Positions 51,086-51,897 of a stretch of DNA of 64,000 bases are shown here, one piece after another. Source of the DNA: Escherichia coli (GTDB lineage Bacteria; Pseudomonadota; Gammaproteobacteria; Enterobacterales; Enterobacteriaceae). The DNA lies in assembly GCA_902500055.1 (NCBI GenBank), contig GCA_902500055.1_4131.1, one strand, 5' to 3'. Within the stretch, counting starts at the first letter, position 1; each line of letters opens with the position of its first letter. Below the pieces are notes generated by a model, which was not told where the DNA came from, searched no databases, and saw only the letters and a program-made list of their open reading frames with translations. A program made the translations under genes and the position numbers.

Positions 51086-51163
51086 ATCACCAACTTTAAT
51101 TAAAAAAAATGGATGGTGACGCTTTTAAACGTCGCTGTCAATTCAGCTTTATAACCACCCGTT

Positions 51164-51373
51164 TTAACTTACCTTTCGGCTACCTTGACGTGGGGCGTAC
51201 AGGCTACTAAAAGCAACTTCTGTAAACATATTTCCACGCCTTACCCTTTTAAATAAAAGTCCATCCGGTTTTCCAGTTTGATGAAGGACTGTCACCTCTA
51301 GTTTAAACCTGCTAGTCAAGTAATAATTGCCTATCGTCCAATTATCAAACCCGTCTAGGTTAACATTCACCAC
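51164..51373 (-). CDS. Possible small basic protein within GC-richer segment (uncertain; may instead be RNA)
   Basis: ORF 69 aa, weak SD. Confidence 0.3.
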   Translation of the reverse strand: MVNVNLDGFDNWTIGNYYLTSRFKLEVTVLHQTGKPDGLLFKRVRRGNMFTEVAFSSLYAPRQGSRKVS

Positions 51374-51543
51374 TTCCTAGAGTACCAGAGATCTTGTTCT
51401 GGATTGCATCGACGTAACTTACACCATATACGTCTGATTGTGGAATTCATTTTATCAGTACTGAACTATTTAGTCAAGTACTTTTTACAAATCTGGACGT
51501 TCATCTTTAAACATATTAATATCCTCAGTACTGAATTATTTAG

Positions 51544-51897
51544 TCAAGAATTAATTCGCATTTTTTTGAATTCACCAACCAAGTACTTATAGAACTCATA
51601 AGTGAACAATGGTTCTTGTACAGTACTCATTTGAAAATATTCTTCTTCTGTCTTTGGTACAGGTGAAGTATATGAAATATAGGGATTATAATCTTCTTCT
51701 ACATAAGTAGAAACTTCAACATTAATTGAACTAAGATCTTTATGTAACAAAATGTTTAATATAACAGTTCGTTGGTCAGGAGTTTCTCCATTTTCCATCC
51801 ACTGTAAACACAATCTCATCAGTTCATCCCAAATATAAAATTGGAAGTTGTAATCTTCAAGGTTGCGTTTTATTGCTTCTTCATATTCACTAAACAT
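51544..51897 (-). CDS. EExxFQxST-motif family protein (TEEEYFQMSTV)
   Basis: ORF; motif. Confidence 0.55.
   Translation of the reverse strand: MFSEYEEAIKRNLEDYNFQFYIWDELMRLCLQWMENGETPDQRTVILNILLHKDLSSINVEVSTYVEEDYNPYISYTSPVPKTEEEYFQMSTVQEPLFTYEFYKYLVGEFKKMRINS

Follow-up and report, generated by a model that had tools for sequence, protein, structure and literature searches.

What is encoded at positions 51102..51448, on the minus strand, of a 64,000-nucleotide (nt) stretch of DNA deposited as Escherichia coli (contig GCA_902500055.1_4131.1; the whole stretch is called the window below)? In BLAST searches the window is 90-99% identical to the Asteriusvirus jumbo coliphages JP4, SP27, slurp01, PBECO4 and 121Q and, judged by this identity, it is an Asteriusvirus-like jumbo coliphage. 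The segment is flanked by transfer RNA (tRNA) genes of the same strand. As the initial annotation had pointed out, it is GC-richer than its surroundings, with a GC content of 0.406, versus 0.279 in the open reading frame (ORF) on its left (50696..51085), 0.302 in the ORF on its right (51544..51897) and 0.339 in the whole window. The same annotation had listed an ORF of 69 amino acids (aa) at 51164..51373, which is indeed present, with a GTG start, and had put forward a single stable RNA as a plausible alternative to it. Our present results agree with a structured RNA and divide it into two separable cassettes, modules A and B, the latter with two domains. The segment very probably represents two independent noncoding RNA genes, the likely products of which are trans-acting stable RNAs matured by the tRNA machinery.

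Fold of module A and the 69-aa reading frame

The division of the segment into A (51448..51255) and B (51246..51102) follows from two observations. In a four-way alignment, homology with T4-like phages ends at ~51258, and phage RaK2 carries at ~51258 an insertion of 42 nt, which is a promoter (TTGAAC-N17-TATAAT) placed in front of B. The following elements compose the predicted fold of module A, which counts seven hairpins (P6 among them) besides its pseudoknots:

51255..51448, minus strand: module A, a structured noncoding RNA of ~190 nt, recognised by the covariance model R1 and by covariation
51443-51440 with 51373-51370, minus strand: pseudoknot PK1, CCAC of the 5' end with GUGG of the P4 loop
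51438-51408, minus strand: hairpin P2
51402-51385, minus strand: hairpin P3
51381-51354, minus strand: hairpin P4
51346-51322, minus strand: hairpin P5, with the conserved loop GACGAUA
51321-51317 with 51311-51307, minus strand: stem S1 (ACUUG/CAGGU) of an H-type pseudoknot
51315-51312 with 51301-51298, minus strand: stem S2 (identical with P6, CUAG/CUAG) of the H-type pseudoknot
51296-51280, minus strand: hairpin P7
51276-51265, minus strand: hairpin P8
51289-51286 with 51262-51259, minus strand: pseudoknot PK2, GUCC of the 7-nt P7 loop with GGAC of the 3' tail

Loop 1 of the H-type pseudoknot measures 1 nt, and its loop 3 is A-rich (UUAAA). The alignment of module A holds 20 distinct homologs, taken from isolate phages, one IMG/VR contig and three metagenome contigs, one of which carries two diverged tandem copies. 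Standard pairs fill 90.2% of 958 alignment cells, compared with 26-39% when the partners are slid by 1-3 columns, and both sides have changed in 26 of the 49 pairs. The covariation score of 0.393 is far from that of shuffled alignments (0.156 ± 0.010; 0 of 500 reach the observed value), and PK1, PK2 and the H-type pseudoknot all covary. P4 occurs as UCUAGG/CCUAGA, CCUAUA/UAUAGG, CCUGAA/UUCAGG and CCUUAG/CUAAGG; P7 as GGUGA/UCACC, GGUUA/UAACC, GGUAA/UUACC and GGUCU/AGACC; PK2 as GUCC/GGAC, ACCC/GGGU, AUCC/GGAU, GCCC/GGGC and UUCC/GGAA; and PK1 as CCAC/GUGG and GCAC/GUGC. RNAalifold, which is independent of the hand-built model, recovers P2, P4, P5, P7 and S1. Many of the G-U pairs are compatible only with a transcript of the minus strand.

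Model R1, built from the nested helices of module A, has a single match in the window (51255..51448, 212 bits). All homologs score between 133 and 217 bits, and nothing else is found. Insertions and deletions in module A are not multiples of three and are located in hairpin loops, and the divergent copies (contigs L012 and L049 and the Aeromonas clade) keep the fold despite 25-35% of sequence change. The unpaired nucleotides that are invariant comprise GACGAUA in the P5 loop, UUGAC/CAG and UUAAA in the H-type pseudoknot, AGAGGU and GAUGG; they would indicate that the RNA has a specific tertiary core and binds a specific partner.

The 69-aa ORF (51164..51373, minus strand) is best described as a chance open frame across A and B, and its GTG start is the GUGG strand of PK1. 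A protein-coding role, which would make the conservation of the segment that of a protein, could be argued from the uninterrupted frame of the window and its closest Asteriusvirus relatives, and from several GenBank records that annotate hypothetical proteins over the region. The frame is, however, broken by stops or frameshifts in most homologs. PM2 and SdyM_006 have a stop at codon 3, and RaK2, KP13-7 and L033 have one at codon 17; the frame is shifted in Pm5461, Mm5 and L032, and each Aeromonas homolog contains three to five stops. No reading frame is open in all homologs, and the 69-aa translation has no match in Pfam. The database records themselves disagree: an ORF of 27 aa is called inside module A in 121Q, the downstream ORF is extended to 180 aa across module B in JP4, and nothing is annotated over the RNA locus in PBECO4 and RaK2. 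In the record of phage 65, an ORF of 66 aa covers the 5' part of the A copy. Since the insertions and deletions described above likewise do not respect the frame, protein coding is extremely improbable and, as far as the comparison of homologs tells, the 69-aa ORF is not a gene. The untranslated RNA proposed by the initial annotation is thus borne out by the broken frame, by compensatory changes that keep the minus-strand fold and by the location between tRNA genes.

Module B and the spread of both cassettes

Module B is composed of a long hairpin (B1) and a tRNA-like domain (B2), with the following elements (bp, base pairs):

51246..51259, minus strand: palindromic hairpin of A and U only, CUUUUAUUUAAAAG, linking modules A and B
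51246..51102, minus strand: module B, an RNA of ~145 nt
51187..51240, minus strand: long interrupted hairpin B1, GGCGUGG...CCACGUC closing GU.UACAG..GUUGC/GUAGC.CUGUA.GC
51111..51180, minus strand: domain B2, a GNRA hairpin followed by a three-way junction
51180-51171, minus strand: GNRA hairpin GCC-GAAA-GGU
51160-51111, minus strand: tRNA-like three-way junction of B2, with the 7-bp acceptor-like stem GGGUGGU/ACCAUCC
51147-51134, minus strand: middle hairpin of B2, GCUG-AAUUGA-CAGC
51133-51118, minus strand: T-arm-like hairpin of B2 (5 bp), GACGU-UUAAAA-GCGUC
51102..51109, minus strand: run of eight U (U8), one base (an unpaired A) after the acceptor-like stem

The 7-bp stem, the adjacent 5-bp hairpin and the single unpaired base after the stem make B2 a tRNA-like minihelix. 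The domain appears in the minimum-free-energy fold (z = -2.5); neither ARAGORN nor the Rfam tRNA model recognises a tRNA at 51111..51160. The GC-richer stretch had initially been described as ending in a hairpin. The corresponding palindrome, gacgcttttaaacgtc, does lie at 51118..51133, but instead of being a simple terminator stem it forms, in the minus-strand RNA, the T-arm-like hairpin of the tRNA-like domain.

The stems of B2 are kept by compensatory changes in RaK2, EJP2 and L032, the B2 paralog of EJP2 having GGAUAGU/ACUAUCC and AACUC/GAGUU. In B1, GGCGUGG/CCACGUC is changed to GGCAUGG/CCAUGUC in KP13-7 and to GCUGUGG/CC..CAGC in Kuravirus. Over the 10 sequences aligned, 97% of the cells of module B pair, double changes occur in 8 of 38 pairs, and the covariation score is 0.147, versus 0.079 in shuffles (0 of 500 reach 0.147). 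R2, a covariance model of the whole module B, has a single match in the window (177 bits) and another in L032 (147 bits), the latter with additional compensatory changes. A pattern scan for module B gave two further matches, both without other module B sequence. By the substitution patterns in their alignments, both modules are shown to be conserved as RNA structures and not as protein.

B1 is shared with the Kuravirus podophages XT32 and 1-6af, where it lies in an ORF-free region of ~650 nt. This GC-rich region (XT32, locus L011, 1753..2401, minus strand; also L093, 355..1002) continues after the B1-like hairpin with GGACGAUAU…UUUAAAAACAGAUGGAG, echoing the module A motifs GACGAUA, UUUAAA and CAGAUGGA; R1 gives no score to it.

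Module A has a wide distribution. In a sensitive BLAST search, window positions 51261..51447 are 85-91% identical to unannotated gaps between tRNA genes in Bragavirus and Novosibvirus. The Bragavirus carriers are T4-like phages of Proteus, Morganella and Shigella (PM2, Pm5461, Mm5, SdyM_006), and the match occupies a ~200-nt gap from tRNA-Gly to tRNA-Asp in PM2 and SdyM_006. The Novosibvirus carriers are T5-like phages of Proteus, among them Proteus phage 1, where module A fills the tRNA-Leu/tRNA-Ser gap. Over 51104..51446, the window is ~81% identical to RaK2 and K64-1, jumbo phages of Klebsiella, and a diverged copy of A is found in the tRNA-Pro/tRNA-Thr gap of ~20 Aeromonas T4-like phages (65, CC2, AS-zj, AP1, P19, avDM6). 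Homologs located between tRNA genes come from PM2, SdyM_006, Pm5461, Proteus phage 1, avDM6, AP1, P19, CC2, L012 and L049. In Asteriusvirus, module A lies inside the tRNA region, behind its own promoter.

In every locus examined, module A is co-oriented with the tRNAs predicted by ARAGORN. Mm5 is an apparent exception; its deposited annotation has all tRNAs on the wrong strand. In PM2, Proteus phage 1, L049 and the Aeromonas phages, the CCA of the preceding tRNA and the start of module A are separated by 0-3 nt. The next tRNA begins a few nt beyond the end of module A in Bragavirus and Novosibvirus, and in the Aeromonas phages an extra 3' segment of ~85 nt lies between the core of A and the next tRNA. 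Module A is thus shown to move between unrelated virulent phages, always co-oriented with the tRNA genes of a tRNA cluster. Within Asteriusvirus, a 460-nt region is 96-98% identical among genomes, compared with 90-94% for the surrounding 1351 nt, which suggests that it is under selective constraint.

Further members were sought in several collections. Exact and degenerate pattern scans of IMG/VR returned already known genomes and L012 only. A pattern scan of metagenomes gave 47 loci, five of them real (L028, L032, L033, L046, L049) and the rest chance matches or an unrelated repeat. In bacterial genomes 16 matches were obtained, about the number expected by chance for an 18-base pattern, and none had the flanking motifs. 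The looser pattern GACGATA-N8-22-TTGACNNGCAG occurred at at least 120 loci, R1 found nothing in the 80 of them that it was run on, and BLAST with the most divergent members, L012 and L049, as queries revealed no further phage groups. Upstream of its tandem A copies, contig L049 (ERZ808232 NODE-1756) contains two tandem noncoding repeats of ~190 nt (~2610..3176, minus strand) with conserved …CACCTGATAAGATTTGCTTAGGTGTATAAATTAT…GGCGATGCGCCC…; these may be another phage RNA family.

The two modules occur in various combinations. RaK2-like phages have equivalent promoters before A and before B separately. In JNE01, which is without A, the same promoter (…TTGACTAAATAGTTCAGTACTGATAAAATG) is fused directly to B. 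The order in L032 is A, promoter, a different RNA, tRNA-Arg and then B, and in EJP2 domain B2 alone stands between tRNA-Ser and tRNA-Arg. These arrangements show A and B to be separable cassettes. Palindromes equivalent to the one at 51246..51259 follow module A in RaK2-like phages and L032, and such a palindrome could serve as a processing or weak termination site.

L032 (metagenome contig JACCDR011713278.1) carries between A and tRNA-Arg a promoter-driven, ORF-poor stretch of ~170 nt (~600..770, minus strand), closed by the 14-bp stem GGUGAGUAACAUUG / CAAUGUUACUCACC. This stretch is probably one more RNA cassette, similar in genomic style to A and B.

Promoters and other genes of the tRNA region

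A 22-nt motif, TTGACTAAATARTTCAGTACTG, is present on the minus strand at 51456-51477, 51526-51547 and 51935-51956, that is three matches with at most 3 mismatches versus 0.00 expected from 100 shuffles. Its copies belong to the following sites:

51449..51477, minus strand: proximal sigma-70-type promoter, TTGACT (51477..51472), N17 and TG-extended TAAAAT (51454..51449)
51518..51547, minus strand: distal copy, 70 nt upstream of the proximal one, with -10 GATATT and a spacer of 18
51929..51956, minus strand: third copy (1 mismatch), TTGACT-N16-TATAAT, scoring 11/12, promoter of the ORF 51544..51897

The -35 and -10 hexamers of the repeat are near consensus at a spacing of 16-18 nt, as in sigma-70-type promoters. 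The proximal promoter, directly upstream of module A, scores 10/12 and has in addition the TG-extended -10; the distal copy scores 9/12, and its TTGACT contains the stop codon of the ORF 51544..51897. A generic scan for sigma-70-like sites gave no enrichment over the region (13 versus 15.6 in shuffles), so the evidence for promoters lies in the repeated 22-mer. JNE01 has a single copy of the motif at the place of the tandem pair of the window, from which it follows that the tandem arrangement is a local duplication. These repeats had been noticed initially, at about 51461 and 51521, positions a few bases off those given above. The TTGACT-N17-TAAAAT reading of the proximal copy agrees with our promoter-site check, and the third copy is, as had been proposed, the element that serves the gene 51544..51897. 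The idea of tandem promoters held for the proximal copy, a good promoter, but less so for the distal one, with its poor -10.

At the other end of the segment, the U8 run (51102..51109) is a possible termination or 3'-trailer signal. It is represented by T7-T9 in the Asteriusvirus relatives and is not kept in RaK2-like phages, and a generic terminator scan made no call at this position.

The gene of tRNA-Ser(GCU) (50581..50670) has its own AGTACT-containing promoter at 50677..50705 (minus strand; TGGACA-N17-TATAAT with TG extension). As this is of the same AGTACT type, tRNAs and RNA cassettes use one promoter design. The palindrome AGTACT (extended consensus cAGTACTg) is itself in excess, with 193 copies in the window versus 19.5 expected. 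Only 6 of the 193, all on the minus strand, lie inside full promoters TTGAC-N9-AGTACT-N1-2-TAWAAT, and promoters were therefore ruled out as the cause of the excess. The flanks of AGTACT hold no further information content; a DNA-binding protein site, a modification site or selection are possibilities.

All genes of the tRNA region are on the minus strand. ARAGORN predicts its tRNAs, including tRNA-Thr, Asn, Ser, Arg and Gly, at 47729-54023, and short ORFs and HNH endonuclease ORFs are interspersed. Apart from those already mentioned, the features are:

49398..50102, minus strand: free-standing ORF with H-N-H-like motifs in its translation, directly downstream of the intron-bearing tRNA gene
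50120..50425, minus strand: tRNA gene with an intron
~50160..50390, minus strand: group I intron within this tRNA gene
51969-52133, 52130-52294 and 52291-52455, minus strand: three 54-aa ORFs
52490..53014, minus strand: HNH endonuclease ORF

The ORF 49398..50102 has no Pfam match. The intron-bearing tRNA gene was overlooked by ARAGORN. Its 5' exon, GGGCCATTAGCTCACGGTGGTTAGAGCAAACGACTCAT, has the anticodon CAU (Met or Ile2), its 3' exon is AATCGTTAGGTACTGTGTTCGACTCACAGATGGCTCA, and CCA is not encoded; the intron matches the Rfam family RF00028 with 99 bits. At the same relative place, 121Q has a tRNA-Met without interruption. To our knowledge, a group I intron inside a tRNA gene of a phage is without precedent. 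The three 54-aa ORFs (51969..52455) are tandem paralogs, each starting with MTHEEW, and each frame shares the four bases ATGA with its neighbour; the annotation of 121Q lists this trio as well.

Relation to known RNAs and possible roles

A scan for a known RNA, which the initial annotation had recommended, identified no family: Rfam 15 has no match in 51100..51450, either at the gathering score or at E up to 10, and none at E up to 1 in the homologous elements of seven other loci. The families so covered include riboswitches, ribozymes, tmRNA, 6S RNA, RNase P RNA, YrlA, GOLLD and ROOL. Literature searches found no description of the RNAs of module A or B. Modules A and B are two undescribed RNA families, present neither in Rfam nor in genome annotations.

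For some fifty years small stable RNAs have been known from the T4 and T5 tRNA clusters, still without an assigned function. Modules A and B share with phage tRNA-cluster RNAs the position within or beside the cluster on the tRNA strand and the conservation as RNA, not protein. RNAC (species 1) and RNAD (species 2) of T4, of 139 and 119 nt, lie beside tRNA-Arg on the tRNA strand, a placement like that of A and B. RNAC ends in a T-arm/acceptor-like sequence, as module B does, whereas module A is larger than both and multiply pseudoknotted. Homology to RNAC and RNAD was rejected, because the MAFFT alignment is poor and R1 and R2 find nothing at the rnaC/rnaD coordinates; a local resemblance between B1 and the 5' part of RNAC (GGAAAUAU.UUU...AAG...AGUAGC) failed a covariance-model test. 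The functions of RNAC and RNAD are still unknown (PMC3014915, PMC9697503). Eight such RNAs are annotated in T5, namely RNAI, RNAIII, RNAIV, RNA2H and RNAX as "stable RNA with unknown functions" and RNA1, RNA2 and RNA3 as "tRNA-like stable RNA", interleaved with tRNAs, promoters and HNH genes as in the window. Here, too, homology was rejected: with filters off, R1 and R2 gave only noise over 16 kb of the T5 tRNA region. The best R1 score, 12.8 bits, falls within the coding sequences T5.052/T5.053, outside the tRNA cluster, and none in the cluster exceeds 8.6 bits. As a kind of element, small stable RNAs in the tRNA clusters of phages are old; module A is unusually complex and unusually widely shared.

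Three other systems offer partial parallels. In the mascRNA of MALAT1 and MEN-beta, a 3' tRNA-like domain can be cut by RNase P, which yields the mature 3' end of the upstream RNA. By analogy, B2 would offer RNase P its recognition element, a 7-bp acceptor stem with a 5-bp hairpin stacked on it; the known cases are, however, eukaryotic, and B2 is without a full cloverleaf. GOLLD and ROOL RNAs are found in phages and prophages, often beside tRNA genes. They resemble A and B in being complex, structured, phage-carried and near tRNA genes but are much larger (~580-800 nt) and come chiefly from Firmicutes and lake metagenomes; neither by sequence nor by model was a match to them obtained here. In the PeSL cassettes of T4-type phages, small cassettes are bordered by repeated early promoters, which appear to mediate the gain, loss and reshuffling of the cassettes. 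The 22-nt motif borders A and B in a similar way, and what JNE01 has lost between promoter and B is exactly A; the analogy would differ in that the cassettes described here are RNA genes, whereas those of PeSL are small ORFs.

We propose the following course of events. The host sigma-70 RNA polymerase would transcribe A and B early from TTGACT-N17-TAAAAT, maybe also from the distal copy or by read-through, while in T4-like and T5-like phages A would be transcribed within tRNA precursors. Enzymes of tRNA maturation would excise the RNAs. Since A of Bragavirus and Novosibvirus ends close before the next tRNA, RNase P cleavage at the 5' end of that tRNA would define the 3' end of A, and in Asteriusvirus the tRNA-like B2 could supply an equivalent RNase P site. 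RNase E, RNase BN and exonucleases would then trim the transcript to the pseudoknotted core; PK1 and PK2 tie down both termini and should thus protect the RNA from exonucleases. A and B would accumulate as stable RNAs acting in trans on a component conserved in gamma-proteobacterial hosts. Such a host component is the more likely partner because the carriers share no obvious accessory proteins. That A is present in four or more phage groups unrelated to one another, some pairs of which are 85-91% identical in it, argues both for horizontal transfer and for a benefit independent of any phage-specific protein partner. The most likely mode of action would be tight binding or decoy of a protein of tRNA or translation metabolism or of a nuclease-type defence, with catalysis less likely. 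We tentatively go one step further, to a possible but rather doubtful reading in which module A is a new class of complex RNA, with an architecture like that of riboswitch aptamers or mid-size ribozymes, and a "moron-like" RNA gene that spreads horizontally through unrelated virulent phages of Enterobacterales and Aeromonas and whose product is a take-over or counter-defence effector. A high-affinity decoy for a tRNA-directed nuclease or for a conserved host RNA-binding protein is one possibility for such a role.

Several observations weigh against two structured, trans-acting RNA genes. The family is rare, known from about 65 genomes of isolates plus 5 contigs of metagenomes. Folded by minimum free energy, A on its own does not surpass shuffles (z = -0.69), so that thermodynamics lends it no support; a poor thermodynamic signal is, however, expected of a pseudoknotted RNA. 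Two clades (12 enteric-type and 7 Aeromonas-type sequences) make up most of the alignment of module A. Because of this structure the all-against-all column covariation was too noisy, and only the pairs 128-129/141-142 were retained from it. P2 and P3 are one column out of register in the Aeromonas clade (63-77% paired) and, together with P8, which is reduced there, form the weaker part of the fold. Module B rests on 10 sequences only. Finally, transcripts initiated 7-8 nt beyond TAAAAT would begin within the CCAC strand of PK1, so that in this phage full-length A may need the distal promoter copy or read-through with processing.

Other explanations have to be set against these two genes. The Asteriusvirus order of promoter, A, B and an ORF whose ATG is preceded, at a distance of 4 nt, by the Shine-Dalgarno sequence GGTGAT would suit a cis-acting 5' leader, a riboswitch or attenuator controlling the ORF 50696..51085, and complex pseudoknotted aptamers are typical of riboswitches. 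Yet in Bragavirus, Novosibvirus and the Aeromonas phages A has tRNA genes on both sides, with spacers of 0-11 nt, and hence no ORF to regulate; in EJP2 two tRNAs enclose B2 alone; B is followed by different ORFs in Asteriusvirus, RaK2 and UE-S1; and no Rfam riboswitch matches, which together render a leader quite unlikely. A self-processing ribozyme, with module A cutting its own 5' border after the CCA of the upstream tRNA, and so aiding the release of neighbouring tRNAs, instead of binding a partner in trans, is also unlikely. It would account for the 0-3 nt distance from CCA in PM2, Proteus phage 1, L049 and the Aeromonas phages, and a core of several pseudoknots with invariant unpaired GACGAUA, UUGAC, AGAGGU and GAUGG is typical of ribozymes. 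Short spacers are, however, usual in phage tRNA clusters and need no ribozyme, the topology is unlike that of HDV-like, hammerhead, twister, pistol, hatchet and glmS ribozymes, none of which matched in Rfam, and A of Asteriusvirus and RaK2-like phages has its own promoter and no tRNA directly upstream. Conservation at the level of DNA (a homing target, a recombination hotspot or an array of protein-binding sites), or a decayed tRNA or group I intron, would fit a hotspot of mobile DNA with its HNH ORFs (49398..50102 and 52490..53014) and group I intron (~50160..50390), and repeated promoter motifs could drive cassette shuffling. Constraint on DNA predicts, however, neither compensatory changes in ten helices nor strand-specific G-U pairs, and the divergent copies retain the fold while 25-35% of their sequence changes. 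As for decay, tRNA and intron models have no match at E up to 10. This whole group of explanations is very improbable.

Two RNA genes thus being the preferred reading, annotation of dozens of genomes is corrected, as their RNA loci had been left blank or called spurious hypothetical proteins, and promoter-flanked RNA cassettes appear to be shuffled like genes. Module A has a well-supported secondary and tertiary structure, the invariant unpaired nucleotides of which are targets for mutagenesis. Together with its wide distribution, this makes the question of what purpose the RNAs of phage tRNA clusters serve directly testable in phages of E. coli. If module A is indeed an effector, the puzzle of T4 RNAC and RNAD and of the T5 RNAs would gain a tractable, structurally defined example.

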